A DNA stretch of 47,206 nucleotides from Patescibacteria group bacterium (GTDB lineage: Bacteria; Patescibacteriota; Minisyncoccia; UBA6257; JAKLIH01): the NCBI GenBank assembly GCA_022705625.1, contig JAKJEE010000001.1:1-47206 (forward strand), given 5' to 3'. Positions within the stretch are counted from its first letter, which is position 1. Each line of letters starts with the position of its first letter. This document shows, one piece after another, positions 23,154 through 45,630 of this stretch. A program made the translations under genes and the position numbers. The notes beneath the pieces are model-generated. The model ran no database searches and was not told the origin of the DNA. It saw nothing but the letters and a program-made list of their open reading frames with translations.

Positions 23154-23183
23154 AAACCAGCCAGTCAATTTGACTGGCAGTTT

Positions 23184-23969: not shown

Positions 23970-24130
23970 ATAACCCTTTGATATTTTTTAAAAAATAGTG
24001 TATACTACGATTAATTAAATTAACCAATATGTTCTATTTTTGATACTGTCATTTACTCTGCTATTATAGCAATTATTGACAAAAAATACAAAAAATATTT
24101 TTGCCAGTATTAGCATCAATTTTTCATTGA

Positions 24131-25246
24131 TTGGTCAATCATACTAAGTTTCTGTTTTTGCGTTTAAATTTAAAAGAGCATACCGAGCTTAATCCTAGTC
24201 GGCTAGCAATTTCAACTTTTATGATTAGTGCTTTGATGTTGTCGTTGATGTTATCCGGCATATCTAAAAACTTTTATTCAACTTTATGGGCTGACGCTGA
24301 CACCATTATAGAAAATGTGGAAATGAATAGCTCCAATTTAATTGCTGAGATACCCTCTATTAATAGTGTCAACCTTGATAGTTATAATTATTATCAAAAT
24401 TTAAATTTAGAAGCTAAATCAGAAAGCTTTTTAGATTTATATTTAATCGAAGATAAAAATTTCTTATTTAGATCGGTGGACATTGGTGATATTGGTGTGG
24501 ATATTACTGACTCCAGCAAAATAATTACGTATGTGGTCAAGCCGGGTGATTCATTAGCTAAAATTGCCAGCCAATTTGATATTAATGTGGAAACAGTTCG
24601 CACTGCCAATTCTTTAAAAAAGAATACTATTACTCCTGGACAAGAATTAATTATTTTACCAATTTCTGGCATCTACTATACTGTTAAAAAGGGCGATACT
24701 TTAAATGCCTTGGCTATAAAATATAAAATATCCGCTAGTACCATTAGAGAATATAATAATTTAGAAGAAGATACCTTAAGGATTGGTGAAAAAATTATTT
24801 TGCCTGGTGCCAAAGAAAAGGTGATAGTGACAAATCCTACTAACATTAATTCGGCAACAAAAATAACCGAAAACAGTGTTAGTGGTAGTGATTTCTTTTT
24901 ATACCCAACAGTGGGTTGAAACTGGGGAACGGCTCATGGTAATAATGGTAATGCTGTTGATATCGCTAACGCTTGTGGAACGCCAATTTATGCGGCCGCT
25001 GATGGAATAGCCATTGTGGTTAAAACTAGTGGCTACAATAGTGGTTATGGATCATATGTGAAAATACAACATAATAATGGCACTTCAACTCTATATGCTC
25101 ATTTAAGCGTAGTCAACATTGCTAATGGTCAATATATAAATCAGGGACAAATTATTGGTAAAATGGGAACAACTGGTCGATCAACTGGTTGCCACCTACA
25201 TTTCGAAGTGAATGGCGTTAAAAATCCATTTATAAAAAAACCATAA
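24131..25246 (+). CDS. Cell-wall metallo-endopeptidase: N-terminal TM, two LysM domains and a C-terminal M23 domain
   Basis: LysM: YVVKPGDSLAKIASQF and YTVKKGDTLNALAIKY. M23: GNAVDIA...GTPIYAAADG...GYGSYVKIQH.NG..TLYAHL...G.TG.STG.HLHFEV. The start (TTG 24131) is uncertain. Confidence 0.85.
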
Positions 25247-25255
25247 AGATTTAAT

Positions 25256-27865
25256 ATGATTAAAAAAATAGCCAAGAAAAGTTTATTAATATTATTATTA
25301 TTTATTATTACCTTGTATGGAGTTTTAACGCCCATTAAGAATGTTCATTTTGAAACCAATACTTGTTCGGCAGCATCAGGAGATGCGTTCCGACCAAAGA
25401 TAAAAACCAATGATGTAGAAGAACAAGCGGTTGATCAGGAATGGTGTCCAGATTGTACAGCAGCAGTACAAGGAATGACTATCTGACGTATGATGGTTGC
25501 GCCTATCGACACTTTACTTTCTTTAATACCAAGACTGCTGGTTTTTATATCAAAATGAATTGTAATTTTGTTTGCCAATATATTACAATCAGCTATGAAT
25601 CCGCGAGCTAATAGTTTTTTGGATGGTATAAATCGTTTTACTGGCGAGGGCAATGTGGCGAGATGAGTTTGACAAAATTCTTTATACTTTGCCAATATTA
25701 TGATTACTTTATTTTTAATTTGAATTGCTATCAACATCATTTTAGAAAAAGCAGAATATACATCTTATCAAAGTTTAATAAAGTTATTAACTGTGGCCTT
25801 ATTAATTAATTTCTCATTGGTAATTTGCACTTTGCTGGTTGATATATCAAATTATATTGCTTCTTTATTTATGTCTGGAGTCAATGGTCAAGCCTTTTCT
25901 TGCACCTATGCTTGTGCTATTCATAAAGTTGCCAATAGCTTCAATTGTGTTGCCGATAAAATGATGCTTTCTCAAACAATTCAAAATAGTTTAGCCTTGG
26001 TGGTAGCAATTATTTTTATTGGCCAGTTATTAGGTTTGATTATTTTTGTATTCACCCGTATGATTTACTTGTGATTTTTGGTTGGCGTATCGCCATTGGC
26101 TATCGTGCTATCAGCCATACCTGAAACCGAAGGTATCTATAAACAATGATTAAATTTGTTTAAAACCAATTTAATAAAATTACCGGCTATCGCTGCTGCC
26201 ACTTATTTTATTCTAAATATTATCTTGTTTATTACTAACCAATCGATGAATACACCAGTTGCCCAGGGCGACGTTATGGAACATGTGCTAACTACCACTT
26301 TTTTGATTATCATTCTGTCGCAAGGACTACTTATGGCTGCTCAAGCCATTGGTGTTGAACAGGTGACTAAGATGTCAGCAATGGTTAATGGCGCAGTCAA
26401 GAAAGGCTGAAATGCGATTAAAGCACCTGTTGCCCAACAATCAAAAAGATTCGCGGCTAATGTACCAATCGTTAGAAAAGGAACGGAAATGCTACAAAAT
26501 AGCAGTGTGCCGTGGATCGCAAAATCGGGAAACAAACTGGCTGCTCAAGTAGCTAAGGATCAGAAAAACGTAGCCACCAATATGGAAGATTTATTCGCCA
26601 ATGCCAATTGAAGATCTTTGGAACGATTAGCCGAAAGTAAAGACCCAACGGTGCGCGTTCAAGCAATGTCTTATTTATCTCAATTAGGATCAAAATATAA
26701 AGCCAAAAATAAATATACTGAAGATCCTGATAAAATTAACGCTATTAAAAAATTGGCTGACGATAATGTTAATATTGATAACTCTGCTGCTTACGATACC
26801 CTTAAAAAAACTTCGCCATTGTTTAAAACTGGCATAAAATCGCTAAGAGGTCAGAAAGGAATAGAAAATATTAATGACACCGTTGGAGAAATTAGTGCCG
26901 CCCTAAACGATGATAAGGGTGCCATGGATATTCAATCAACACTAGACACATTAATAAAAAATGCTGGTAGTAATCTGCCATATTTGATGAAAACTCTTCA
27001 GCGCGATCTTGACCCATATATTCTTAACGGTAAAGCCAAATCACTTGGCAACAAGGGTTATTTGAGCTTAATGGACACATTAGCTAAAGGTATTATTGTC
27101 GCTAAAAAAATAAAGAACAACGAAATCGCTCCGGCTGAAATTGATGATAATTTAAATGGTTTTATGCAGGGTTCGTCCACAGAGAATGCTGAAATGAGAA
27201 ACTATATTAAAAATCATCTTGTCGCTGATGCTGTGGAAATAGCCGAAAGTACAGAATATAATTTCTTTGGCAAGTGAGGAAGAAAAGGCCCGAGTTCATT
27301 TAAACGCACTGCTCAAGGACGTTTGTATATTAATATGGATAGCAATTCTTCTCCTATAAACATTAATAGAGCCAATACCAATAATAACGCTCCACAAAAT
27401 ACAACTACGGAACCAATTGATCGTGGGGAAGAACCTCCTTTGACTAATGATGGCGGTAGACCAACTGGGAGTAGAGACGCTGCTCCAGCCCCAGATAGTG
27501 GTAGGCCAGCTGAGAGTAAAGACACTGCTCCAACTCCAGATAGTGGTATGAGCGATGTAAAAGATGCTACACTATATCATTTTAACGAGTTGCGTAAAGA
27601 AATTAGAGAAGTCGCCTCAGATCTTCAAAAAGATTTACCGGAAATTAAAGATTTAATTCCAAAAATCAATGCGGCAATTAATTATGCGTCTGAAGATAAA
27701 AATAGAGAGTACATATCTTTAAGAGACAGGATAGACGAGCTTAAAACCAATTTAGAGTCAAACACTTCTTATACCTTCTCAACAAAAGATAAGTTAGAAT
27801 TGTTAATTGAAAAACTTGAACAAATGGAAAGATTGCGAGAAGAAAAAGATCATTCGTCAGAATAA
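25256..27865 (+). CDS. VirB6/TrbL-like polytopic membrane protein with a long hydrophilic C-terminal extension (869 aa)
   Basis: Five track fragments (25256, 25793, 26156, 26618, 27323) share one frame and are separated only by TGA. It has a signal/TM N-terminus, at least six hydrophobic helices between about 25480 and 26400, and heads a T4SS-like operon. Confidence 0.5.
27455..27544 (+). repeat. Two tandem 45-bp coding repeats (GRPTGSRDAAPAPDS / GRPAESKDTAPTPDS)
   Basis: Direct comparison of 27455..27499 with 27500..27544. The tract is locally GC-rich. Confidence 0.85.
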
Positions 27866-27940
27866 AAAGCCACTCCTGTTTTTTGGCTAGTCGATTATTG
27901 CGCATGATTAAAACTATATTGTTAATAAATAAAACAGCTT

Positions 27941-28918
27941 ATGTTGACCGAAATCTATATCGGCGATATCATTGACAAACTACCAGACCAGATACAGTCA
28001 ATTATTTTTAGTGATGAGTTAGAACAAATTGTTGACAATCTCTCTTCGATAATAGGCCTGGATGAAGATCAAAAAATGCTATTGTCTCAAAGTATTACTA
28101 CTTTACTAATGGGAAAATATGATTTTGTCACTTTTAAAAATGTGTTGTTAGGTTTTAATTTAAGTGAAACAAATATTAATCTCGCATTAGATTATTTAAA
28201 CAAAAAATTATTTGATAAAAATAAAAAATATATTAATGATGCGAGCTATATATACCGAGAAGAATTACAAAAACTACAAAATCCTAAGCAAGAGTTAGTG
28301 ACCAATTTTAGCAAAAATACGACTCCATCTGTGGTATCATATATAAAAGAATTGGCGGAAACTATAAAACAAAAAGAATCTCACCCAAAAAGCGAAACAG
28401 CATTAGAAGTCATAAACAACGATAATATAGCCGCCGCCGTTAAAACTCCGATTGAAAACACTCTTGCCAAAACCGCTGATCAAGTGGAGCCAACAAAATC
28501 TACTGTGTCTCTTGAACCAGTTAAAGTAGAAGAAGCTCCTAAATTAGAAACACCGGTGTTAGAAAAAAAAGATTCTATTTTGTTACAAGCCATGCGTCAA
28601 AATTCTAATAGTGAAGACAGTAAATTAAATAAATATTATAAAGAGTTGCGTGATAGTTTATCCGAAAAAACCAAAGAAACCAAAAATGTATTTCAACCAC
28701 CGTTCAAATCGGCGACTAATCATGGAGCGCTAATTGAGTCATTTTTGGATGATACTAAAGTAGAAAAAGCTACTTCGCCCGAAGCGAATAATTTGCCAGT
28801 AAATAGTGCCCCAATTAAATATAGTCATTGAATTCAACCAGAAAAAATAGCACAAACTACTGACACTGACGCTCAATCTTTAAACGAAGAAAAAATTATT
28901 GACTTAGGCGATTTGTAA
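27941..28918 (+). CDS. Hypothetical protein (325 aa), T4SS-module-associated; low-complexity C-terminal half
   Basis: ORF 27941..28831 continues through a TGA to the TAA at 28916. No motif was recognised. Confidence 0.5.
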
Positions 28919-28993
28919 AATAAAAATATTGCTAATTAACTGGTTTTATGTTAAATTATAATAAACATTAATAAAAACTAATTTAATAATGTT

Positions 28994-29401
28994 ATGGCTG
29001 ATTATCAAGTGCCACAATTTATCGAAGATGAATCAAGATTAATTGGTCCATTTACAATAGCACAAATTTCAATATTGGTGGTTGGATGTGGGTTGGCTTT
29101 TATTGTATTTAAATTGTTTAAATCTTTTATTGGCATTCCTTTGACGATTATTATTTTGTTTATTACTGGTATATTAACTTTTGGTCGAATGAACGATATG
29201 CCTCTGTATAAAATGATTGTCCCCATGATTAAGCATTTACTTTTACCAAAATCTTATCAATGAAGTCAACCCCACTTTGTAAAAAGCACCGGACAAACTA
29301 CCACCCAAAAGGTTACTAACAATATACAGCCAACTCAAGAAACTCACAATTTTAAAAAGATTGATGATTTAACTAAAATTTTAGATAAGGGCAATGAATA
29401 A
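28994..29401 (+). CDS. PrgI-family (VirB3-like) small membrane protein
   Basis: MADYQVPQFIEDESRLIGPFTIAQ...two TM helices...GRMNDMPLYKMI. This is the characteristic PrgI N-terminal signature, and the gene sits directly upstream of a VirB4-like ATPase. Confidence 0.75.
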
Positions 29402-30077
29402 ACAATCCCGTCCCATAAATAATAAAAGCACACAATATTTAGTGCCAATAAATGAAATTCGTAATAATGTTATCGTATTGAAAAATAGTGCTTTGCGATC
29501 AATTATTGAAGTTGATGGCGTGAATATGGATCTGTTAGAGAATGAAGCTCAAGAAAATTTACTTAGTAATTGACAATCTTTTTTAAATAATCTGGATTTT
29601 TCTGTTCAAATTTTGGTAACCTCCAGAAAAACTAATATTGAAGACTACTTAACTAATATTGAAAATCTTTTACCTAATACTGAAGAAGAAATGCTATTAG
29701 CTCAAGCCAATGATTATATTAATTTTGTGCGCGATTTTGTTAGCAATAATCAGATTATTGATAAAAAATATTACGTCGTGGTACCTTATGATCCAGTTGT
29801 TTTTAAGAAAAGTGCTTTGGGCGGACAAATAAAAGATTTATTGTTCGGTTTGTTTAATTTAAATCGTGAGGCCTTTTCGCAAGACATTATTTTAAGCGAG
29901 AATGAATTTCAGAAACATTATCAGCAACTAATTCTTCGTCAAGAAAACGTCATGGCCCAGTTGCAAAGAATTGGCTTAGATGCGAAATTAGTCACAACTA
30001 ACGAAATTATTCCGCTTATCCACAATATGTATAATCCGGACGTAGCAATAAAAACTGCTTTATCAAAAGATAATTAA
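29394..30077 (+). CDS. T4SS-associated protein (227 aa), possibly a detached VirB4 N-terminal-like domain
   Basis: Its start overlaps the prgI-like stop by 8 nt. The pattern VPINEIRNNVIVLKNSALRSIIEVDGVNMDLL.NEAQENLLSN[W]QSFLNNLDFSVQILV resembles the N-terminal region of VirB4/TrbE proteins. Confidence 0.4.
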
Positions 30078-30085
30078 AAAACACT

Positions 30086-31873
30086 ATGGCTATATTCTCA
30101 TCAAAAAATAAAAAAACCGAGGTTGATCAACTAATTGATCAGAGCCAATCAAGTTATGCTAAAGCCGTGGCTTCGTTACGTGATGTCATTTCGCCAGCAG
30201 GAATAGTTGTCAATACTACTTCCGTGAAATTAGGGGGAACTTATGCTCGCACGTTATTTATTTTAACTTACCCAAGATATTTGAGCCCAGGGTGATTTTC
30301 GTCAGTAATAAATTTTGAATCCGCTAATAATATTTCTATCTTTTATCATGCCATTGATAATTCATCAATTTTAAGACAGCTTCGAAAAAAGTTAGGCGAC
30401 GTTGGTGCTCAAATTCAATTAGAAGCCGAAAAGGGAGTGCCACGTAATCCAGCATTAGAGACAGCTATTGAAGATATTGAAAATTTACGCAATGCAATAG
30501 TGCAAGGCACCGAAAAAATGTTTCGCGTGGCAGTTTATATTACTTTAATTGGCAATAGTGAACAAGAATTAAACGACAATGAAAACAAAATTAACACCTT
30601 TTTAGAAAGTAAGTTGATTTATCCAAAATCAGCTCATTTTCGACATTTTGAAGGTTATGAAAGCACCATACCACTATGTTTAGACCGCTTGGGCTATGGA
30701 ACATTATTAAACTCTACGCCAGCTTCGACTCTTTTTCCATTTATTTCTGCAAGTTTAACTCAAAATTCTGGCATTATGTATGGAATTAATTTAATCAATA
30801 ATAGTTTAATAATTTTCGATCGCTTTAGTTTAGAAAATGCCAATATGTGCGTGTTTGGGACATCTGGTAGTGGAAAAAGTTATGCCGTAAAAACCCATGC
30901 CGTTAGAGAATTAATGATGGGCTCAGAAATTATCGTTATTGATCCAGAAAACGAATATGAATATTTAGCTAAAGCGGTGGGTGGTGAAAGCTATAAAATT
31001 GCGGTATCATCCAAAGACCATATTAATCCTTTTGATTTACCAATTATAACCACTGATGAAACTGTTGGTGAAGTATTTCGTGGTCATGTTTTAAATTTAA
31101 TTGGTTTAATTAAAATTTTATTGGGAGGACTAAGTCCAACTGAAGAGGTGGTTATTGACCAAGCTATTACTTTAACTTATGCCTCTCGAAATATTGATGT
31201 TGAATCCGATAATGCTATAGAAAATATGCCAATCCTGGAAGATTTGACTAACGTTTTAAATACTATGGAAGGTGGGGCTAATTTGGCGGCTAAATTATAC
31301 AAATATACCAAGGGAACTTATGGTCAGTTTTTAAATCACCCCACCAATATTAATATCAGAAATAAATTTGTTGTTTTTAATATTAATGAATTAGAAGAAG
31401 AATTACGACCAATTGCTATGTATATCTTGCTTAATTATGTTTGAAATAGTATTAAAAGAATTATGAAAAAAAGAATTTTAATTATCGAAGAGGCCTGACT
31501 ATTAATGAAATTTAAAGAAAGTGCCAACTTTATGCTAAGTTTTGCTAAAAGAGCTAGAAAATATTATTTAGGATTAACAACTATTACTCAAGATTTGGAT
31601 GATTTTTTGAAGTCACCTTATGGTTTACCAATTATTGCCAATTCGAGTATCAAACTCTTGTTCAAACAGTCCACTGTTTCCATTAATCAATTAGCCGAGG
31701 CATTACAATTAACTAGCGTTGAAAAAGAATTATTAACGCAAATAAATATTGGCTCAGGATTATTTTTAGCTGGCGATAAACATACTTTAGTACAAGTCGT
31801 GGCTTCTTACACTGAAGATCAATTAATCACCTCCGATCCAGCGAGATTAATGTCTTTAAAAAATAAATCTTAG
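30086..31873 (+). CDS. VirB4/TraC/PrgJ-family type IV secretion ATPase
   Basis: Walker A GTSGSGKS (30857..30880) and Walker B ILIIEEA[W] with W = TGA at 31496. N-terminal YARTLFILTYPRYLSPG[W]. Three fragments are in one frame. Confidence 0.85.
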
Positions 31874-31875
31874 CT

Positions 31876-32556
31876 ATGTCTGTAACATTAATTGCGGCCG
31901 GTGTTAAGGTGGCAGGTAAGACCTTGGTCAAAAAGCTCGGCACCAAGGTAGTTCAAAAGGGAGCCAAACAAGTGGCCAAAAAGGGCACACAAAAACTTGC
32001 CCAAGAAGGAGCAAAAAAATTAGGCACATCAGCCGTTAAAAAAAGTACATCACGAGGAGCTACTAATCAGTTTCAAAAAGCTAAAAATTTATACAATGAA
32101 GTAGAAAACACTACAAAAATCAAAGACAATGTGCCGGCCAAAGATGAGCCAGAAAAACAAACTGACACTACCACCGAAACCAGCCACCAAACATCAGACA
32201 CCCAGCCACCACAAAAAAAATCGGAAAGTAAATGACCGTTTTATATTGCAATGTTCTTTGCAGTTATTAAAGATGCTGTGGAAATATGACTTTCGCCGGT
32301 TGCCCCAGTTTTAACTTTCTTGCCCACGATAATTATTACCTCCATATTGCTTTTATCTGGCAAAAAAGGTACAATGAAAATAGTAATATCTTTGTTAACT
32401 ACGCTGGTTGATTTTTTAATGCCGGGTGTCAATATCTTACCAATGACAACTATCGCGGTGTTTATAACTATGAAACCAGATAAATCCAAAAAACTAAATA
32501 TTAATAACCAACAGGTCTCAAAGATTGTAAAAAGTGTAAAAAAATTTATAAAATAA
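31876..32556 (+). CDS. Hypothetical membrane protein: Lys-rich quasi-repetitive N-terminus plus C-terminal TM helices
   Basis: Fragments 31876..32235 and 32320..32556 are in the same frame, joined across two TGAs. The N-terminus carries KKLGTKVVQKGAKQVAKKGTQKLAQEGAKKLGT. Confidence 0.5.
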
Positions 32557-32560
32557 TTGC

Positions 32561-33562
32561 ATGATTAAAAATATATTAATAAAAATAGTATATATCATAA
32601 TCTTCCTGCTAATATTGATCCCGCCAATGAAAGTTTTGGCTAGTAATTACATTTGAGAAGTGAGCTTACCGGGTGTATCTTTGCAACGATTAAATAATTT
32701 GAATGGCTTTGGCGATTTAGTAAATATGATAGTGGGTTTGGCTTATAGAGCGGCCCTGCTGTTTATGTTGTATAAATTAATTGTGGTTGGTTTTAAATAT
32801 ATGACTAATCAGGGAAATGCCGATGTAGTAAAGGCAGCATCAGAAGGATTAAAAAATATTCTTTTCGGGGCTTTAATTTTATTTGGCTCCTATATAATTT
32901 TATATACTATTAACCCCAAACTAACAGAGTTTCCTCAACAATTATATTGTGACCCTAAAATAGCAGATTGCGAAAAGAAAAATACAGGTAAATCCAACAC
33001 GCATGTTTATACTACCTGTCCAAGTATAATTGAAGATCCTCGTGAAGATGAGACCCAAGCCGCGGATGGGGGAACAAAATCCGAAGATTCAACTGACGAT
33101 AACGGCATAAGTCCAACAACGATTGAAGATTTTATCGATGCTAATGACGCCTATTTAGCTCAACACGGTGATTGGACTAGTGCTCAACAGGATTTCCAAA
33201 CCGGCAAAGTTTCTAACAGTGTATGAGAAGCATTTAAATTAATTACCGATTTAAGAAAAAAATGATATTCAGATGGTTGTGGCAAATTGGTGTGAGGCCC
33301 AATCTTTACTAATCACGAAAAACCAGCTGGATCGACATATACTTCTTGTCATGACACTTACGAAGCGATTGATTTAGTGGTAAATGACGAATATGGAAAA
33401 ACGTCAATAAAGTGCACAACTGAATTTCTAAAATATATAAAAACTAGTGGGGTAGCAAGCGCTACGGGGGTAATAATATGTGATGAAACAAATTTTTCCG
33501 ATGTTACTCCTCACATTCATATCTCTGATACTAATTGTAACTCGGGATGTCGTGTTTCTTAA
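32561..33562 (+). CDS. T4SS pilin-like (VirB2/TrbC-like, CPR type) N-terminal domain fused to a Cys-containing C-terminal domain with LAS/M15-type zinc-peptidase motifs
   Basis: Signal peptide, then two TM helices flanking YMTNQGNADVVKAASEG. C-terminal motifs S-C-H-DTYEA-I-D (33344..33373) and H-I-H (33512..33520). Confidence 0.55.
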
Positions 33563-33570
33563 TTAATTTA

Positions 33571-33603
33571 AAAAAGAGAGGGTTAGAATCTCTCTCTTTT
33601 TTA
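33571..33603. terminator. Bidirectional terminator between the T4SS-like operon (+) and jag (-)
   Basis: AGAGAG (33575..33580) / CTCTCT (33592..33597), with an A-run upstream and a T-run downstream. Confidence 0.75.
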
Positions 33604-33605
33604 AA

Positions 33606-34085
33606 TTAAATTGAATTTGATCGAAAACCAATAACAATATACCGATTAGGTGGTTCGCCTTCTGATCAACTATTTAGATCTGGATACAATGATATTTCGT
33701 TATGAATAATCTTGCGATCACGCGCCGACATTGGTTCTAATTTCACCGCTGTTTTAAAAATCATAACTCGTTGAGCTGTTTTCTTGGCTAAATCTTGCAA
33801 TTCTTTTTGACGATTTAACCGATAGCCATTAATATCAAACTCCACTCGACAACGTTCGGTCGTTTGTCCATTAAGATTAGCAATATCAGTTAAAACACTT
33901 TCAAAAGCCTCTAAATTACTACCAAAACGACCAATAAAAATACTGGCGGTCGTTGGCAAGCTAACACTAATTACTAGTCTGGTATTGGCATCATAGCTTT
34001 TAATATCAATGGAAAAATCATCAATATGACAACTATGAAAGAAAACATCCAGAACATTTTTTATTTTTTCGATAGCTAATTCCAT
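33606..34085 (-). CDS. jag: Jag/KhpB-type RNA-binding protein (KH + R3H domains)
   Basis: The ORF continues through a TGA into the conserved R3H end ...RKIIHNEISLYPDLNS[W]SEGEPPNRYIVI. Syntenic with yidC. Confidence 0.8.
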
Positions 34086-34088
34086 AAT

Positions 34089-34772
34089 TTATTCTTTAGC
34101 AACTTTACGGCGAATATATAAAGTTTGAATAATATTTAAAATGGTAATGACAATTCAGTAAAGGAAAATTACACTTTTAAAATTTTTGTAATTAAGAATA
34201 AAAATAGCTGGGAACACATAAGTAAAAATCTTTATCATATTTTTTTGTGGATCGTTATTGTTTAAATACTTTAAGGTCACCATACCTTGAAGGACTTGAA
34301 CTGCTGACGCTAAAATGGCAAAAACCAAATTGGCTTGAGATAAATTAACTATTCCCAAAAAATTATAACTAATATTGGCATTAATTAGTTTACCAACTCA
34401 TGGGTATAAATTATTAATAAAATCTGGTCTAACCGCTACGGTAAAAGCGCTATACAACCCAAAGATGATAAAAATTTGTAAAAATGAGAATAGAAAAGCA
34501 AAACTGGGATTAATTTTATTATCTTTATAAATTGCTAATAATAATTCAGTTTGTTTTTTAGGATCTTTTTTGTATTCAGTTTGAATTTGTTTAATTTCAG
34601 GTTGAATTTTTTGCATCTTTTTCTGTAGAATTTCATTACGAGTAAATAGTGGCCATAGCAAGCCACGAATAGCAACGGTAGTGAAAATAATACCCAAACC
34701 AAAATCACCAAAAAAATTAGTTATTAAAAATAATAAATTTATAGTTGGCTGTCAAAATAAGGTTTTAAACAT
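34089..34772 (-). CDS. yidC: Membrane protein insertase YidC (short, Gram-positive/CPR type)
   Basis: Fragments are joined in one frame. GLGIIFTTVAIRGLLWPL, QKKMQKIQPEIKQIQ..YK.D....Q.E...IYK...INP. Sits in the rnpA-yidC-jag synteny. Confidence 0.85.
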
Positions 34773-34775
34773 ATG

Positions 34776-35111
34776 TTATTTATTTAATTTTTTAACCAGC
34801 ATATTTAACTCTTGTTGAATTTCTTGAAAATTCATTCGAGTTATTTCCTTTTTAATTACAATTACTATGTCCAAAGCAGTTGGTATAATCGTTAATGATT
34901 GATAAACAATATCCCTTAATAGCCGTTTATAATAATTGCGATCAACGGCCTTACTTAATGTTTTAGCTGATACCACAAAAGCAAAGCGGGAATGAGACAA
35001 ATTATTGTTCGCAAAATTAATGATGATACCTCGACCAAACACTGCCGCTTGATTTTGGTAAACACGACGAATATCTTTGTCTTTACCTAATCGATACTTT
35101 TTAGCTAACAT
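34776..35111 (-). CDS. rnpA: Ribonuclease P protein component
   Basis: LAKKYRL....I..V......RFAFVVSAK..KAV.RN..KR.LR. Lies downstream of rpmH. Confidence 0.85.
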   Translation of the reverse strand: MLAKKYRLGKDKDIRRVYQNQAAVFGRGIIINFANNNLSHSRFAFVVSAKTLSKAVDRNYYKRLLRDIVYQSLTIIPTALDIVIVIKKEITRMNFQEIQQELNMLVKKLNK

Positions 35112-35113
35112 AA

Positions 35114-35254
35114 TTAAGCAGAAAGTTTTTTACGATTTTTTAATCTTCTTTGTTTAATGATTTTTTTACCAGCTGATGTGGATTGTCGGCTTAAAAAACC
35201 AAACTTTTTAGCTCTTTTTCTTTTACTGGGTTGATAAGTTCGTTTAGTGGCCAT
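35114..35254 (-). CDS. rpmH: 50S ribosomal protein L34
   Basis: [41 protein letters not shown] (46 aa). Too short to appear in the ORF track. Confidence 0.9.
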
Positions 35255-35509
35255 AATAAAATTTTAATATATTAGTTAACTAATATAGCTTATCATATTA
35301 TAAATGATAAAACAAGTGGAAAAATGATAATTATTTTATATTTTAAGTAAGACCTTGATTACTTGGTAAGAAAAACTAATTTAGTTAAATTAAAACTTTG
35401 CACAGCTTTTCCACTTATTGGTTAATTTTGGCTTTACTTTGGTTGAAAAATAGTAAAAAAATAGCTATAATATAGTTGATATAATAATCGAAAAATTGAA
35501 TACTTATTT
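35255..35509. promoter_or_regulatory. rpmH-dnaA intergenic region: oriC-associated DnaA-box-like sites and the dnaA promoter
   Basis: Inverted pair AGTGGAAAA (35315..35323) / TTTTCCACT (35407..35415), a 7/9 match to TGTGGATAA. AT-rich. Confidence 0.55.
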
Positions 35510-36913
35510 ATGTCGAACGAAGAACTAAAAAGATTGTGAAAAGACGTATTGTCGGAAATTGAATTAAATATTTCTAGGGCCAATTTTATTACTTGATTTA
35601 AAAACAGTGCAATTATAGAAAAAACCAAGGACACGGTAATCGTGGCCACTAATTCTAATTTTGCTAAAGAGTGACTTGAAAATAGATATAATAAATATAT
35701 TAAAAAGGCCTTGGAAAAATTTGCCCCCGAAATAAAAACCATTATTTATAAAACCGATTCAATCGATAATATTAAAAAATATCAAAGTATTAGTGAAAAA
35801 GATTTAACTAATGATACAGCTGTTAATCCTAAAAAAACCAGTGGGGTAGCTGCTCACTTAACTCAATCAGCCCAAGATCCAGATACTAATTTAAATTCAA
35901 AATATACATTTGATAATTTGGTAGTTGGTTCACATAATGAACTGGCTCATGCCGCTGCATTAGCAGTAATTGATAATTTGGGATCTAAATATAATCCTTT
36001 GTTTATTTATGGTGGGGTAGGGTTAGGTAAAACTCATTTAATGCAAGCCCTCGGGAATGCCGTTAAAACAAAAAATAAAAAAATAAATATCTGATACATA
36101 AATACCGAAAGATTAGTAAATGATATTATTGGTTCGATCCGAGAGCAATCCATTGATGAAGTTAAAAAACAATATAAAAAAATTGATTTATTATTAATTG
36201 ATGATATTCAGTTTATTGCCAATAAGGAAAAAACCCAAGAAGAGGTATTTCATATCTTTAATGTTTTATATGAAGCTAATAAACAAATTGTGTTTACCTC
36301 GGACCGGCCACCAAAAGCTATTCCTGGACTCGAGGAAAGGTTACGATCTCGTTTTGAAGGAGGAATGGTAGCCGATATTGGCTTACCTAATTATGAAACG
36401 CGGGTGGCGATTTTAAAAAACAAATTAAAAGATAAAAAATCTAACTTACCAGAAGAAATCATTGATTATATTGCCCAAAATATTACTAATAACGTGCGAG
36501 AGTTAGAAGGAGCGTTAAATACATTATTAATTAATTTTGAAGTTAAAAAAATCAATCCCAGCATTGAATTGTCTAAAAAACTTTTAGAAGATTTTATTAA
36601 AAAACCTAAAAAAACCGTTACACCTTTAGAGGTTTTAAAAGTGGTTTCAAATTTTTATGACATACCATTAGATAAAATTAAAAGTAACTCGCGACGAAAA
36701 GATTTAGTTAAAGCCAGACAGATTACTATGTATATATTAAGAGAATTAGTAAAATTATCTTATCCAGCTATTGGTGAAGTTTTTAATAATAAAGATCACA
36801 CTACCGTAATGCATTCTTGTAAAAAAATAGAAGAGGAAAGGGTTAAAGATAGCGTTTTAAATAGTGAGTTAGAAGCAATAATTGAAAAATTAAGTTACGA
36901 TGTGTTTAATTAG
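35510..36913 (+). CDS. dnaA: Chromosomal replication initiator DnaA
   Basis: F..F..G..N..A.AAA, Walker [19 protein letters not shown], sensor/box [11 protein letters not shown]-terminal DNA-binding KDHTTVMH. Fragments are in one frame. Confidence 0.93.
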
Positions 36914-37171
36914 TGGAAAACCATTTACTAAACTTGTTGAAAAGTTTAGGATAACAAGTATTATAACTTAGGTATTGAGTTTGTTAAAAATAAATAAATA
37001 GGTTTTAGTTTTTTATAATCAAAAGTTGTGCTATAATTAAAATATGGTTATACACATTAAGAAGGTAAGAATAATTAATTATTTATTAAACAATTTTAGT
37101 TTTTACACTTATCCACCTAACTAATAATATTAATAATTATTAATAATTTAATAAAAAATAAAAATAATAAT
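36914..37171. promoter_or_regulatory. dnaA-dnaN spacer: probable oriC core (DnaA boxes plus an AT-only unwinding tract)
   Basis: AGTGGAAAA (36912..36920), TTATACACA (37047..37055) and TTATCCACC (37109..37117), the last two being 8/9 matches to TTATCCACA. About 50 nt of pure A/T lie at 37122..37171. Confidence 0.6.
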
Positions 37172-38287
37172 ATGAAATTTACTTGTTTAACTTCTAATCT
37201 TAAAAAAGCATTAAATATTTGTGAAAAAATAACTAATCGCAATTTAAGTTTACCAATTTTAAATAATATTTTAATCAAAACTTTTAAAAATCAGTTGCAG
37301 TTAGTTTCTACTGATTTAGAGTTAGGTTTGAATTATTTTGTGAATGGGGAAGTAATTGAAGAGGGTGATATTATTATTCCCACTAAATTGTTACTTAGTT
37401 TAATAAGTAATTTAAAAGAAGAAAAAATTACATTAGAAACTAAAAAAGATAAATTATATATTCAAACTAAAGATTTTGAATTAAATATTCAAGGGTTTGA
37501 TAGCACCGATTTTCCAATTATTCCAAAAATTAAATCGGAGGATTATTTAGAAATAGATTCTCAAGAATTTTTAAAAACTTTAACTCAAGTTATTAAAAGC
37601 GCCAATGCTGGTTTTAATAAACCAGAACTAAATAGTGTGTATTTTCATTTTAACAATGATAATATGTTTTTTGTGAGCACTGATAGTTTTCGATTAGCTG
37701 AGAAGCAATTAGGAAAAAGTTTTTATAAATTTAAAGGTAATCAAGAAGTTAAAATTATTGTGCCCACCAAAACCATTAATGAAGTAATGTTAATTTTACA
37801 AAATTTTGAGGATATTAATGATCGGGTTAAAATTTTCTTCTCGAATAATCAAATTTTCTTTGATTTTGGTAGTGTGGATTTAATTTCTCGGTTGATTGAA
37901 GGTGAATTTCCAAATTATAAAAATATTATACCTAAAACATTTCAAACCAAATTACAAATTGATAAAAATAAATTTATTGAATCAATTAAATTAATAAGTT
38001 TACTTAGTAGTCAAATTAAAGATATTAATATTCAATTAGATATTAAAAAACAAGAAATAGTGCTAAAAGGATCAGATACTAATAAAGGGGAGGGTATCTA
38101 TCGGGTAAAATGTTTGATTGAAGGTTATGATGCCAAAATGTGTTTTAATTATAGTTATATTTTGGATGGATTAGAGAGTATTAACAATAATGAGATTTTT
38201 ATGGGGATTAGTGAGGATAGTCCGGCCTTACTGAAAGCCACCAATGATGACAGCTTTATTTATGTGTTAATGCCAATTCGCATTTAA
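37172..38287 (+). CDS. dnaN: DNA polymerase III beta sliding clamp
   Basis: Intact 371-aa ORF directly after dnaA. LPIL.NILI, STD..R.A, LI.G.FP.Y..IIP, M.FN..Y..D.L. Confidence 0.9.
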   Translation: MKFTCLTSNLKKALNICEKITNRNLSLPILNNILIKTFKNQLQLVSTDLELGLNYFVNGEVIEEGDIIIPTKLLLSLISNLKEEKITLETKKDKLYIQTKDFELNIQGFDSTDFPIIPKIKSEDYLEIDSQEFLKTLTQVIKSANAGFNKPELNSVYFHFNNDNMFFVSTDSFRLAEKQLGKSFYKFKGNQEVKIIVPTKTINEVMLILQNFEDINDRVKIFFSNNQIFFDFGSVDLISRLIEGEFPNYKNIIPKTFQTKLQIDKNKFIESIKLISLLSSQIKDINIQLDIKKQEIVLKGSDTNKGEGIYRVKCLIEGYDAKMCFNYSYILDGLESINNNEIFMGISEDSPALLKATNDDSFIYVLMPIRI

Positions 38288-38313
38288 AATTAAGTATTAA
38301 TTATTAAGTTAGT

Positions 38314-38604
38314 ATGTTTAAATTATTAGGTGAGATTATAAAAAAAAGAGTTAAAGGATTGAATTTAGACAATGGTATTAACGAACAAGTGATTTTAAGT
38401 ATTACCGAAGATTATATAAAACAAAAAAATTTATTCCTATGTTTTCCTAAAAGTTTTATTAATAATGAGCTAACCATTGAATGTTCAAAATCAGTTATGG
38501 CTGAAGAAGTTAATAACCAAAAAAATGAAATAATAATGTTTTTAAAAGAGTCCTGTCCCGATATTAAAGTGTATAATATTAAGACACTAATTAGGCCTAA
38601 TTAA
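38314..38604 (+). CDS. DUF721/DciA-like small protein
   Basis: 96 aa, immediately downstream of dnaN. The pattern P.SF.NNELTIECSKSVMAEEVNNQKNEII.FLKE....I..I is typical of DUF721. Confidence 0.45.
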   Translation: MFKLLGEIIKKRVKGLNLDNGINEQVILSITEDYIKQKNLFLCFPKSFINNELTIECSKSVMAEEVNNQKNEIIMFLKESCPDIKVYNIKTLIRPN

Positions 38605-38614
38605 ATTATTTATT

Positions 38615-40399
38615 ATGAAAGAAACACTCGAAAAAATTATATTCGAAACGATAATCAAGGTTTTAAATCAAGAAAAATTATCAATAACTATTAATCAATC
38701 GCAAGTTAAATTAGAAAAAATTTCTAATGCAACTTTTGGCGATTTTTCAACTAATATTGGTATGGTTTTAAAATTAGATTGTAATGTTATTGATAAAATT
38801 ATTAATCAATTACAAACTAATGAAGTGGTAAAAACCTTTATTGAAAAAATCGAATTTAAACAACCAGGGTTTTTAAATTTTTATGTAAAAACCGAATTTT
38901 TATTAAATAATTTAAAAACGATAGTAAATTTAAATAAAAAGCAATTTTTTACTACTAATCGAAAAAGTTTTTTAATTGAACATACTAGTCCCAATACCAA
39001 CAAGGCGTTACACATTGGTCACTTGCGTAATTCGGTGCTGGCGATGGCTATTATCCGAATTCTCAGAGCTTTAAATCATAAAGTGACGGCCGATTGCTTA
39101 TTTAATGATCGCGGTGTGCATATTTGCAAAGCAATGTTAGGTTACTTAAGATTTAATGATCAAGTGACTGATATTAAAGACTTATTAAATCAATGAACCA
39201 AACAACCAAGTAAATGGCCACAGCCGATAGCCGATGAACCAAAAGACGCTTTTATTGGTAAATATTATATTTGAGGAAATAAATTAGAAAAAGAAGAAAA
39301 ATATAAAGAAGAATTGCAATGATTATTAAGAGAGTGAGAAAATAATCATAAACAAGTGAGAAAATTATGGAAAAAACTAAATGATTGATTTTATGAAGGA
39401 TTTTCTCAAATTTTTAAAATTATCAATAGCCAAGTTGATCATTATTGATATGAAAGTAAATTTTATAATAAAGCCAAGAATTTATTAAAAGCAGGGGTAA
39501 AAAAAGGGGTTTTTAAAACGTTGGAAGATGGGGCAATCTTAACACAATTACAGGCCTATAATCTAACGGATACAATTATTCAAAGATCAGATGGCACGGC
39601 GATGTATTTTACGCAGGACATATATTTAACGAAAATGAAAACGAGCCAGTTTATTTGTGACCAATATTTATGAGTAGTTGGCCCAGAGCAAAAACTACAT
39701 ATGCAACAAGTGTTTGCCGTTTGCGATCAATTACAGATTGGCAACAAAGATAAATTTAAACATTTAAGTTATGGCGCGGTTTGTAATAAAGATGGTAGTA
39801 AAATGAGCTCACGTAGTGGCGAAGTGCTAAGTGTAGTGGAATTACTTCAAGAGGTGGTAACTGCGATTAATAACAAGATGGGAACTGATTATCAATCATT
39901 GAAGAATTTTAATAAAAAAGACCAAGAGCATATTATCAATCAGTTAGCACTGGGTTCAATAAAATACGCAATGTTAAAATTAGAACGTGAACAAGATTTG
40001 AAGTTTGATATTAATGAAGCCATTGATTTTAGGGGGAATGGTGGGCCATATATTCAATATACGTATGCGCGCTGTTGTTCGTTATTAAATAAAACCAAAC
40101 CCAATCTTAGTAATCAAGATGAGCTAAATAGTCAACTTTCCAGTGAGGAAAAACTGTTGTTAAGACATATGTTGTATTTTAAAGAGGCGCTAACCAAATC
40201 AGGTGAAAACTTAATGCCCCATATTTTAGCAACTTATTTATTCGAATTGGCCAAATATTTTAGTAGTTTTTATGAGAAAAATCGTATTATTGATGCTGAA
40301 CAAAATCAAAAACTGAGAATTGATATGACTAAAGGGGTAGCCAATATTTTAAAATGAGGATTAGAACTATTAGGCATAGAAGTAATGGCTAAATTATAG
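38615..40399 (+). CDS. argS: Arginine--tRNA ligase
   Basis: HTSPNTNKALHIGHLRN (HIGH), DGTAMYFTQDI, MSSRSG (KMSK-like), C-terminal anticodon-binding helices. Joined across many TGAs to the TAG at 40397. Confidence 0.9.
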
Positions 40400-43734: not shown

Positions 43735-45630
43735 ATGAAAAAATCTATACCATTGATGTTAGTGGCTTTATTGGTGGTGGGAATATTAACTCAAGGCACT
43801 AAGGTTTTTAATTTGCCTAATTTTTTTGATAAGGTATCAACAAAATTATTTTCCTCTAAAAAAACATTGTTGGCCGATGTAGATTCGTCGCCAGACAAAA
43901 CAATTTCCCCCGTTGATTTAATTACTAGTGATATGGAAACTTGTGCGGTTGATAGTGATTGTCAACTTATCAATATAACCAACGAACCAATGGGTTGTTG
44001 CTATTGTTTAAGTAATATGGACTCAGAATGAATATGACGAGCAGTGAATGGGCAATCTCGATCGAAAATCGAAGAGATTAAAAATGAATATTGTGCTACT
44101 GAAACACGATGTCCGGTGAGTGTTGACTGTAATAAAAACCCAGTTTTACCAATCGACAGGATAGCTAAATGTGATGGTGGAAAGTGTATTGTAGCTAAAC
44201 CAGAAGTTAGCAAAAATTTAACACCAACGGATGAAGATTCGGAAGTTTCAACAGACACCAACAATGTTAATTCGATGTCGGCTACGGAAACAACATTAAA
44301 AGAATATTATTATTGTTCTTTGCCAACATATCAATGCGTAGCCAAATCTATTATAAACAATACGGGTGGCTATCTTTCACAAAAAGACTGTGAGAAAGAT
44401 TGTTCTCAAACTTTAGTTAAAAGCATTGAACTATCAGCTGATATGCTAAAATGTTCGTATAATTCCGATTGTAAAATTGTTGATACCGGTTGTTGCCCTT
44501 GTGCTTGAGGATACACTGAAAAAACTAAAACAGCTATCAATCGTAACTCAGAAAAAACTTTTTTGGCTAAATGAAAAAATGATTGTAATGGAGCAGCTTG
44601 TGTGCAATCGTCTATTAATAATTGTCGTCTTAAGGTTGAGGCCAAATGTCTAAATAAAACATGCACAGCGGTTTGAGAAAAACCAATAAAGCCAGCCGTG
44701 ACTTCAACAATGAATAAATGTATGAAAGATTCAGATTGTGCAATAGCAGAAACTGATTGCTGTGGTTGTGAAAAGGGAGGAGTTGATAATACAAAAGTGG
44801 GTATTAATAAAAGTTATTTAAATAATTTTAAAAATAATATAGCGACATATTGTAAAAAAATGAGTTTAGATTCTTGCGTTTGAAATTATAATCGATGTCG
44901 ATTTGATGCTACCGTAGCATGTAAGAATAAAGTTTGCGTTGTTAATCTAACGAGTCAGGGTTCATCCGGTGAATTACCGGTTACGCCACCTATTTCTTCG
45001 ACGACGACGACTATTACCACTACGACTACTACGACGACCACTACGACTACTACTAAAGCTAGTGCGCCAGTTATAACTGAAGAACAAAGAAAATGCACCA
45101 GTGATGCTCAATGTAGTTATGTTGAAACTGATTGTTGTGGTTGTAAATATGGTAACGATTTTCTAACACAAATGCCAATTAATTCTAAACACAAGTACAC
45201 TTTTACTAATACGCTTACTAAATATTGTCAAGCCAATAAATTATTACCTTGTAAATCAGTTGGTGTCAATAATTGTTTTACTCCCAAAGTAAAATGTATG
45301 AGTGGTTTATGCACTAATATATGAGTGGCTCCGGTCGCCTCGACAAGTGTTACCTATAAAAAATGTACTGCTGATACCGATTGCGTTGTTATTGAAACCG
45401 CATGTTGTGGTTGTGAAAATGGTGGTAATATAGCTACAAAGATTGGTATTCATAAAAACTATTTAACTTCGGTGTTTAATACCTTTAAGACAAATTTAAG
45501 TAAATATTGTCATGCGGTCAATCAAGATAATTGTAGTTCAACTGATAATAAATGCGAGGGTGAACCAAAAGCAGTGTGCGTTAAAGAAGGATCAATTAAA
45601 GTTTGCAAAGTGAAGGCGGCCAATGAGTAA
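43735..45630 (+). CDS. Secreted cysteine-rich repeat protein (631 aa): signal peptide, five ~80-aa Cys-rich modules, poly-Thr linker
   Basis: Fragments 43735, 44044, 44698 and 45325 share one frame, and the gaps contain only TGA. The repeated core is C-x3-D-x-C-x5-6-[TE]-x-CC-[GP]-C. The Ser/Thr tract is at 44995..45054. Confidence 0.75.

Follow-up and report, generated by a model that had tools for sequence, protein, structure and literature searches.

A predicted relaxase-free type IV secretion system cluster near dnaA in a Patescibacteria lineage that reads UGA as tryptophan

Gene organization and genetic code of the locus

We analysed a 47,206-nt stretch of DNA (contig JAKJEE010000001.1 of a Patescibacteria group bacterium, positions 1 to 47,206; hereafter the window), with the focus on a cluster of genes that is predicted to encode a type IV secretion system (T4SS). 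Under translation table 11, calling of open reading frames (ORFs) broke the 25-34 kb region into short ORFs only, and reading through UGA raised the summed length of the ORFs of at least 100 aa in the whole window from 8,730 to 16,432 aa. With UGA read as Trp (code 4), seven ORFs, all on the + strand, are found precisely where a first-pass annotation of this DNA had placed seven co-directional genes, namely, 25256-27865, 27941-28918, 28994-29401, 29394-30077, 30086-31873, 31876-32556 and 32561-33562. The tight packing and the 8-nt overlap described in that annotation were confirmed as well, the intergenic distances being 75, 75, -8, 8, 2 and 4 nt in this order. As for the bounds of the module, it had been described as ending at a terminator and as merely preceded by a LysM/M23 peptidase gene. 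A terminator-like hairpin with a 20-pair stem does lie at 33563..33609, between the convergent pilin-fusion and jag genes, and forms the end of the unit; however, the LysM/M23 gene belongs inside the unit, since no more than 9 nt separate its stop from the VirB6 gene, with which the seven begin. The unit is therefore one of eight genes, 24029-33562. A consensus scan returned a promoter-like site on the + strand (TTGATA-17-TATACT, 23978..24006, 10/12 matches), a candidate operon promoter located in the 59-nt divergent spacer between rsmA and the M23 gene. Such sites are barely above background in this AT-rich window (82 observed against 65 expected), and naming this one the operon promoter is a guess made from a pattern match. 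No Shine-Dalgarno-like purine runs were visible in the 20 nt upstream of the eight starts, where the DNA is simply A/T-rich.

The reading of UGA as Trp agrees with the alignments of several genes. Each of the three UGA codons of virB4 is aligned with a column in which 103 of 104 distant homologs have Trp, and one of the three encodes the W of the Walker-B 'EEAW'; in DnaA, UGA likewise occupies classic Trp sites, and in PNPase an aromatic one. The window ORFs contain 89 TGA codons against 21 TGG. Code 25 (UGA=Gly), which is used by the recoded lineages known from the candidate phyla radiation (CPR), was rejected because UGA stands on invariant Trp columns, and an origin from Mollicutes, which code 4 had prompted, was rejected because the unit encodes wall enzymes with LysM/M23 domains and because the homologs are from CPR. 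In-frame UGA is aligned with Trp in the ten closest loci of other genomes (L001-L010) and mostly with Gly in the loci of Gracilibacteria/Peribacteria (L025-L080), and the loci intermediate between these have no in-frame UGA, except for a single TGA in L013, which is aligned with Thr. Since UGA is thus Trp in the closest loci, Gly in Gracilibacteria/Peribacteria and absent in between, these alignments indicate that the UGA-to-Trp recoding is separate, within the phylum, from the UGA=Gly recoding of Gracilibacteria/Absconditabacteria. The gTranslate preprint (May 2026) describes the first UGA-to-Trp Patescibacteria, namely, the Minisyncoccia family JAKLIH01 and the genus GCA-2747955, and reports for family JAKLIH01 that tRNA-Trp(UCA) is present and prfB absent. 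The window very probably comes from this family or a close relative of it; the closest relative of our locus (L007, 91% VirB4 identity) is contig JAKLIH010000009. Seven tRNA genes lie in the window, none of them for tRNA-Trp, and a search with Rfam gave these seven tRNAs only. Annotation pipelines that use table 11 would shred this operon, and most genes of the window fragment under it. Neither the code-4 reading nor the lineage had been recognized in the first-pass annotation.

Core subunits of the predicted apparatus

The gene at 30086..31873 (+) encodes a VirB4-type ATPase of 595 aa without an N-terminal domain. It matches NCBIfam conju_CD1110 with an E-value of 6e-105 (352 bits against a cutoff of 325; model positions 176-729 of 752) and Pfam P-loop_TraG with 2.6e-25, and has a Walker A motif GTSGSGKS at residue 258 and a Walker B motif ILIIEEAW at residue 466, the W of which is encoded by UGA. 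A VirB4 ATPase with clear Walker A and B motifs had been called from the letters alone, and the call is upheld by this match to the CD1110 family above the NCBIfam cutoff. Among its best 120 matches every named one belongs to Patescibacteria/CPR, with identities of 40-58% outside its own clade and of about 44% to the Saccharibacteria loci; these nearest matches served as a proxy for a tree in judging its membership in the Patescibacteria clade. The best plasmid VirB4s, at 28-33% identity, are from Firmicutes and Actinobacteria, and, as the nearest proteins outside CPR, they are consistent with an ancestry in the mating-pair formation class MPF-FATA.

A free-standing homolog of the VirB4 N-domain, as in a split VirB4, is encoded at 29394..30077 (+), with its stop 8 nt upstream of virB4. 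This TrsD-family protein of 227 aa matches, in NCBIfam, VirB4_plasma (positions 99-233, 3.6e-13), TrsD/TraD (7.3e-10) and conju_CD1110 (positions 4-119), all under the full-length cutoffs, as is expected of a single domain. The first-pass annotation had named it VirB4-N-like, as these matches bear out, and had also listed it among three products with no recognizable motif, of which only the 325-aa and 226-aa products remain orphans. Judging by the model positions, the N-domain absent from VirB4 is supplied by this product. TrsD is the commonest T4SS accessory protein in Patescibacteria (PMC12102498). In the Gracilibacteria/Peribacteria loci L025-L080, nothing but VirB4 is shared in the vicinity of the match, and the TrsD-like gene lies 5-10 kb away or is absent from the locus; this distance or absence, as well as the alignment of UGA with Gly there, agrees with the literature. 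Overlapping the TrsD gene by 8 nt is the gene at 28994..29401 (+), which encodes a PrgI/VirB3-like protein of 135 aa with two transmembrane (TM) segments; the earlier PrgI call stands, with a Pfam PrgI match of 2e-8 and 35.1 bits against a 27-bit cutoff.

At the upstream end of the unit, the gene at 24029..25246 (+) encodes a membrane-anchored cell-wall hydrolase of 405 aa (Pfam M23 1.5e-28, LysM 6.6e-28), with one TM segment (residues 60-78), two LysM domains and a Peptidase_M23 domain, and it is syntenic in L001-L010. By its domains and its place as the first gene of the unit, this protein would fill a VirB1-like role, as enzymes of this type do in monoderm systems; M23/LysM 'VirB1' proteins near virB4 have been reported for Paceibacteria (PMC12102498).

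The gene at 25256..27865 (+) encodes an extended VirB6/TrbL-type polytopic channel subunit of 869 aa, recognized by profile and by fold, in which about 7-8 TM helices in residues 1-365 are followed by an all-helical hydrophilic tail of about 500 aa. The family profile matches TrwI, the VirB6 of R388 (PDB 7o3v), with an E-value of 7.8e-6, and 12 of the 23 family members match Pfam TrbL (best 1.4e-5), although the 869-aa window protein alone remains below threshold there (E=0.19). In the AlphaFold2 (AF2) model, which has a predicted local distance difference test score (pLDDT) of 70.5, the top Foldseek hits are TrwI chains (8rtd_L, probability 1.00; 8rt9_F, 0.99), and TrwI chains (0.92-1.00) are its only high-probability structural matches. 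The structure models of this work were built on two database proteins, P0121 with 100% and P0131 with 99% identity to the respective product of the window. The earlier call of a VirB6/TrbL-like polytopic protein is thus supported by the profile match, by the TrbL matches of relatives and by the fold. A 45-nt tandem repeat at 27449-27538, with copies 80% identical, encodes a 15-aa Pro/Ala/Asp-rich repeat in a disordered part of the VirB6 tail.

A pilin domain fused to a predicted peptidoglycan peptidase

The last gene of the unit (32561..33562, +) encodes a protein of 333 aa in which profile, fold and motif indicate a VirB2-type pilin domain joined to a LAS/M15-like peptidase. Its N-terminus consists of a signal peptide and a two-helix hairpin (residues ~50-117), the helices of which are long, hydrophobic and joined by a charged loop, and a Cys-containing disordered linker separates this hairpin from a C-terminal domain (~residues 170-333). 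In the public annotation of P0121, the identical protein, translation begins at Met23, which leaves out the signal peptide; the ATG upstream of it, at 32561, has the support of orthologs. An exhaustive search by profile among 1.84 billion representatives gave 6,346 matches, nearly all of them confined to the N-terminal ~120 residues. When 103 of these were sampled, 86 had Pfam T4SS_pilin (best 1e-27) and seven had TrbC/VirB2 (7/103), and the pilin domain is linked by profile to T4SS_pilin proteins at E-values of 1e-11 or better; full-length relatives of the 333-aa product likewise score above the T4SS_pilin cutoff. The first-pass annotation had called the product pilin-like, which holds for the N-terminal domain, but had missed the C-terminal one. 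The T4SS_pilin-domain relatives (P0164-P0270) are very variable in length, from about 100 to 900 aa, and pilin-hydrolase fusions recur beyond this lineage: behind the pilin domain, the 103 sampled proteins have an M23 domain in four cases, SLT in three, M15_4 in one and PKD in two.

The C-terminal domain is modelled with a pLDDT of about 90, and its top 31 Foldseek matches in PDB all have the Hedgehog/LAS fold (probability 0.72-0.96), among them the L-Ala-D-Glu endopeptidases PLY500, ChiX, RB49, LysB4 and LysECD7. Residues S262, C263, H264, D271, H318, H320 and D323 are invariant in the clade (H318-I-H320), and the wider family shows the textbook SxHxxGKAxD...HxH zinc-ligand signature. The domain thus shares its predicted fold and the H-x6-D...H-x-H pattern with M15 endolysins (PLY500, T5/RB49 type, LysB4) and with Serratia ChiX, but differs from the endolysins in being Cys-rich and in that its partner is a T4SS pilin domain and not one that binds the cell wall. 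A search of PDB sequences with the family of the 333-aa product gave nothing meaningful, and Pfam M15 models found no match at threshold in the full-length remote relatives. Since the Foldseek E-values are weak and the Pfam M15 scores are under threshold, we assign the domain, with moderate confidence, to a divergent and unannotated LAS/M15-like zinc peptidoglycan peptidase. VirB2 pilins keep both of their ends outside the cell, and the peptidase domain would therefore be extracytoplasmic. The presence of a predicted peptidoglycan peptidase on the operon's sole pilin suggests that walls are cut where two cells meet. Pilin-peptidase fusions are not mentioned in the 2025 survey of Patescibacteria T4SSs (PMC12102498), and this fusion and the positionally conserved 325-aa family described below may be the new details of the locus.

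We considered whether the VirB6-, pilin- and PrgI-like calls could be chance resemblances beside a lone VirB4-like ATPase. The window proteins taken alone do score weakly or below threshold, with an E-value of 0.19 for TrbL and of 0.37 for T4SS_pilin. However, the VirB6 family profile and an independent structure prediction agree with each other, the pilin domain is linked at 1e-11 or better to proteins that match T4SS_pilin at up to 1e-27, PrgI is above the Pfam cutoff, and the gene order recurs across Patescibacteria. Chance resemblance is thereby refuted, and the profile searches, which could have exposed these three as unrelated membrane proteins, left all three calls in place.

Two positionally conserved accessory families

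The product of 27941..28918 (+) is an orphan soluble acidic protein of 325 aa with a net charge of -14 and no TM segment. Two parts are conserved in its family, an N-terminal domain of about 110 aa and the tail F(I/V)DLGD at the C-terminus, and orthologs are present in L001-L010. A hidden Markov model (HMM) of the family found relatives directly upstream of PrgI in L013 (8618-9028), L017 (108-530) and L015 (6930-7385), with E-values of 3e-15 to 3e-10, and relatives upstream of PrgI also in L011 (8057-8836) and L050 (5572-6360), with E-values of about 1e-5. The family is always encoded between virB6 and prgI, and this in several classes; its long forms end in F(I/V)DLGD(F/L), and its short forms of 136-151 aa (L013, L015) end in NIVDLKGE. 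This tail may be a docking or secretion signal, and the family is a candidate adaptor or substrate of the system.

The product of 31876..32556 (+) is an orphan membrane protein of 226 aa with no family match. The Lys-rich membrane protein noted here earlier is indeed of this kind: its Lys/Ala-rich N-terminus is very basic (net +16 in 70 aa), its tail is basic, and a hydrophobic block at about residues 120-200 would make roughly 3-4 TM segments. It has orthologs in L001-L009, and in L011 and L050 weak relatives (E ~2e-3) come right after virB4. Searches with Pfam and NCBIfam on the 325-aa and 226-aa products, their orthologs and the short remote relatives gave no match. Since relatives of both hold the same gene positions in other Patescibacteria, the two products appear to be positionally conserved T4SS accessory parts and not random fillers.

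Genomic context and conservation of the gene order

Downstream of the unit, on the - strand, lie jag (33606-34085), yidC (34089-34772), rnpA (34776-35111) and rpmH (35114-35254), identified by Pfam R3H, 60KD_IMP and Ribonuclease_P and, for rpmH, by translation, and these are followed on the + strand by dnaA (35510-36913) and dnaN (37172-38287), identified by translation; together they form a canonical origin-region gene cluster. The flanks consist of housekeeping genes over the 24 kb upstream and the 13.6 kb downstream of the module, including those for tRNA synthetases, Pth, SmpB, S15, PNPase, RsmA, YidC, RnpA, DnaA, DnaN, ArgRS, TsaE, S1 and Obg. The module had been placed next to oriC, with rpmH and oriC about 1.7 kb from the terminator. 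The rpmH gene does lie 1.55 kb downstream of it; however, oriC itself was inferred rather than demonstrated, and both tests for it are negative or weak. The GC skew shows no change of sign at dnaA and is positive on both sides (33000-39000), and the number of DnaA boxes (15) is no higher than the 16.9 expected, with only two 1-mismatch boxes (37048 and 37109) in the dnaA-dnaN spacer, which has a GC content of 17.7%. Upstream, nearly all genes are on the + strand.

A synteny scan of 185,579 species genomes recovered ten metagenome-assembled genomes of uncultured Patescibacteria (L001-L010) with 65-91% VirB4 identity. As far as their contigs reach, the order in all ten is pnp-rsmA-M23-VirB6-325-aa gene-PrgI-TrsD-VirB4-226-aa gene-pilin-jag-yidC-rnpA-dnaA-dnaN. 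At larger distances, in Nealsonbacteria and other Paceibacteria-like metagenome-assembled genomes, the VirB6-PrgI-TrsD-VirB4 core lies beside jag/yidC/rnpA/dnaA/dnaN in L011, L012, L017 (Nealsonbacteria) and L050, and in the Saccharibacteria loci L018, L023 and L024 dnaA/dnaN are found within about 10 kb. The linkage of the module to the origin gene cluster, which had been proposed for comparative checking, thus holds in L001-L010 and in part in distant Patescibacteria. In the Saccharibacteria loci L018, L019, L020 and L022, arrays in which 4-8 small genes for pilin-domain proteins stand in tandem are found some 2-5 kb upstream of virB6 and on the opposite strand, in line with the published 'pilin arrays'; the lineage of the window has a single fused pilin instead.

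None of the ORFs in the 47-kb window has a relaxase, type IV coupling protein (T4CP), VirB11 or integrase domain. A search for att-like flanking direct repeats yielded AT-rich chance matches only, and no tRNA gene lies at the module borders. The GC content of the module (0.336) is near that of its flanks (0.314 and 0.303), so that the module is not compositionally foreign. These results agree with the earlier observation that relaxase, VirD4-type, VirB11 and integrase genes and flanking repeats are missing. They bear on whether the cluster is a decayed integrative and conjugative element (ICE), or the part of an ICE with the relaxase, T4CP and integrase just outside its genes. In keeping with such an origin, the VirB4 is of conjugative, CD1110 type, its nearest non-CPR relatives at 28-33% identity are on plasmids of Firmicutes and Actinobacteria, and the GC content of the module is slightly above that of its flanks (0.336 against 0.30-0.31). 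However, the genes on both sides are housekeeping genes as far as the window reaches, none of the mobile-element features was found in it, and the insertion context is the same in ten genomes with 65-91% VirB4 identity, with the core linked to dnaA in other classes as well. An ICE is thereby effectively refuted. Because of the housekeeping flanks, the lack of mobile genes and repeats in the window, the synteny in ten genomes and the linkage to the origin cluster in distant ones, the comparison supports a vertically inherited core chromosomal locus rather than an ICE. A core apparatus in place of a conjugative element was also what the first-pass annotation had argued for, and the housekeeping flanks and the gene order conserved in ten genomes sustain it. 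That the core order and the dnaA linkage hold in a recoded and very AT-rich lineage supports vertical inheritance and strong selection.

Relation to known type IV secretion systems

The cluster is a T4SS of the Patescibacteria clade, a type already described in 2023-2025, and not a new kind of system. VirB4 has been found in 2,417 of 3,035 Patescibacteria genomes, in a clade nested in the monoderm MPF-FATA class; these systems have almost no relaxases, and their clusters often lie near dnaA, dnaN, rnpA, ksgA and rpmH (Quinonero-Coronel 2025, PMC12102498). The repertoire, the lack of relaxases and this location are given there for 2,407 assemblies. A 2025 review describes them as a new branch of the T4SS superfamily (PMC12857230). 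In Southlakia epibionticum, the T4SS (SEML1_0006-0019), a cluster without a recognizable relaxase or coupling protein, was found by transposon sequencing (Tn-seq) to be essential for epibiotic growth (Wang 2023, Cell, PMC10633639). The earlier interpretation of our cluster as a core apparatus without a relaxase is therefore right, although such systems, with their proximity to dnaA, had already been published (PMC10633639, PMC12102498, PMC12857230).

Compared with the Paceibacteria/Minisyncoccia arrangement (PMC12102498), our cluster has a VirB4 of the same clade, an adjacent TrsD, PrgI/VirB3, VirB6, a VirB2-like pilin and an M23/LysM 'VirB1', and it is likewise chromosomal, lacks a relaxase and a nearby T4CP, and lies beside dnaA, dnaN, rnpA, ksgA (rsmA) and rpmH. 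It differs in that its host reads UGA as Trp, in that a single pilin gene instead of an array is present and is fused to an M15-like peptidase, and in that two accessory families (325 aa and 226 aa) fall outside every profile tried. The system of S. epibionticum ML1, of class Saccharimonadia, is the only relative tested experimentally. It resembles ours in being origin-proximal and chromosomal, with Gram-positive-like subunits and pilins and with wall-hydrolase genes beside virB4; however, it has six divergent pilins in an array and genes for peptidase and lysozyme that stand by themselves downstream of virB4, in place of one pilin-peptidase fusion.

With the MPF-FATA systems (pCF10 PrgH-PrgI-PrgJ-PrgK, and the CTn/Tn-type CD1110), the cluster has in common PrgI, a VirB6-like protein and a multi-domain wall hydrolase with an M23/LytM-type domain. 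Its VirB4 is of the CD1110 type, and a TrsD followed by a VirB4-type ATPase is the arrangement of pGO1 (pGO1/pSK41 TrsC-TrsD-TrsE). Unlike these systems, it has no relaxase, T4CP, oriT or adhesin and no recognized VirB8-like protein, it is not on a mobile element, and it has a VirB2-type pilin, which the Gram-positive systems do not. Helicobacter pylori ComB and archaeal Ced, which serve DNA uptake or import, and Bordetella Ptl and Brucella VirB, which export effectors without a T4CP, are likewise T4SS cores without a relaxase and/or a coupling protein; however, only the VirB4 P-loop is shared with them, and they are diderm or archaeal systems with other accessory sets.

Predicted function of the system

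Taken together, it is highly probable from the sequence that the eight-gene operon is a chromosomally fixed, vertically inherited and MPF-FATA-derived T4SS of the Patescibacteria clade, without DNA-processing parts. By analogy with S. epibionticum, which requires the homologous cluster for epibiotic growth, an essential exchange with a host bacterium, in the form of protein export or macromolecule import, is the most likely task of the machine; conjugation is unlikely, since no DNA-processing genes are at hand. The cluster is one more instance, in a newly recognized UGA=Trp lineage, of a T4SS that is apparently central to the life of Patescibacteria on other bacteria.

From the known roles of the component families, the machine may work as follows. 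The polytopic VirB6 protein would form the membrane channel or platform, to which PrgI/VirB3 and the TrsD N-domain protein would dock the hexameric VirB4 ATPase. VirB4 would power assembly and extract the two-helix pilin from the membrane, and the membrane-anchored LysM/M23 enzyme would open the cell's own wall, letting the machine span it. Outside the cell, on a pilus-like fibre or a membrane stub, the M15-like zinc peptidase of the pilin would cut the stem peptides of peptidoglycan, in the own wall or in that of the host cell. The acidic 325-aa and basic 226-aa proteins would be conserved accessory parts of this machine.

Several points weigh against this interpretation. The function is inferred from homology alone. 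The single operon is read from the spacing of the genes only, and internal promoters could exist in the two 75-nt gaps. The minimal core of Gram-positive T4SSs comprises VirB1, B3, B4, B6, B8 and D4, and no VirB8-like component was recognized, in that family profiles and TM prediction showed no product with the architecture of this single-TM, NTF2-fold subunit and gave no such family match; in Patescibacteria, VirB8 is seldom detectable (PMC12102498). In most Patescibacteria the T4CP is encoded far from virB4 (PMC12102498), and one could lie elsewhere in this genome, as could further pilin genes or a VirB8-like gene. The pilin and peptidase calls depend on transitive profile homology and on a model: the E-value of the window pilin product against Pfam T4SS_pilin is 0.37, below threshold, Peptidase_M15_4 was matched in one close relative only (E=0.16), the AF2 model of the fusion is of medium confidence (mean pLDDT 70), and the LAS Foldseek E-values are only 0.02-0.2, with target-normalised TM-scores of 0.33-0.48, although the fold is unanimous. 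Moreover, if this is the sole pilin, a domain of about 20 kDa on each subunit may be sterically incompatible with a VirB2-type fibre.

The first-pass annotation had suggested DNA uptake, host-cell contact or effector delivery, which are the alternatives found in the literature, too, and are not separable from the sequence. A device that imports DNA or nucleotides, like H. pylori ComB or archaeal Ced, and feeds an organism unable to make nucleotides appears unlikely. Consistent with it are the absence of a relaxase and a T4CP from the window, a basic cytoplasmic N-terminus of the 226-aa membrane protein that could bind nucleic acid, and a generic similarity of VirB4 to CedB (1e-9) and CedD (5e-7), which is weak and far under the cutoffs; the authors of PMC12102498 also favour uptake of DNA or other macromolecules. 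However, the CedB/CedD similarity is that of the shared P-loop only, and in this lineage no ComEC, DprA, nuclease or DNA-binding domain was found in or beside the cluster. In Southlakia, moreover, natural transformation needs type IV pili (T4P) and ComEC, and growth is possible without comEC but not without the T4SS (PMC12857230).

A further possibility is that nothing is translocated, and that the VirB4/VirB6 core serves only to build a surface fibre or anchor, on which adhesive domains and domains that cut walls would be displayed, to attach to the host wall and lyse it locally. The recurrence of wall hydrolases or PKD at the C-termini of the pilin family and the fact that the operon's single pilin is such a fusion agree with this, as does the established role of VirB4 as the ATPase that powers the formation of pili (PMC12102498). 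However, a pathway for a substrate is suggested by the VirB6 channel subunit and by the conserved soluble 325-aa protein, in which the tail at the C-terminus is conserved, other pilin genes may lie outside the window, and no adhesin domain was found in the cluster, so that we regard an anchor without translocation as rather improbable, even more so than DNA import. Exchange with the host through a translocating T4SS remains the preferred explanation. As a speculation well short of even chances, we would propose a double role for the T4SS pilin domain of Patescibacteria as an export and display module: a fibre or stub driven by VirB4 would be studded or tipped with the M15-like domain, which would cut stem peptides in the peptidoglycan of the host and so work as a 'drill', making an opening in its wall through which the T4SS conduit can pass. 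If this is true, the repeated occurrence of M23, SLT and M15 domains after T4SS_pilin domains would represent a general and so far undescribed strategy of VirB1-VirB2 fusion in epibiotic attack.

Other features of the window

Right after dnaN, a small ORF at 38314-38604 (+) has a sub-threshold match to DciA (E=2e-4), a helicase-loader family often found at the dnaA-dnaN locus. A secreted protein of 631 aa encoded at 43735-45630 (+) contains a long stretch of poly-Thr and some five Cys-rich repeats with the motif C..D.DC..ETxCCGC; Pfam gave no match. The 575-aa product of 12838-14565 (+), anchored at its N-terminus, has a sub-threshold DUF11 match only and probably lies at the cell surface. A bidirectional terminator-like hairpin with a perfect 8-bp stem separates the convergent genes pnp and rsmA at 23160-23178.

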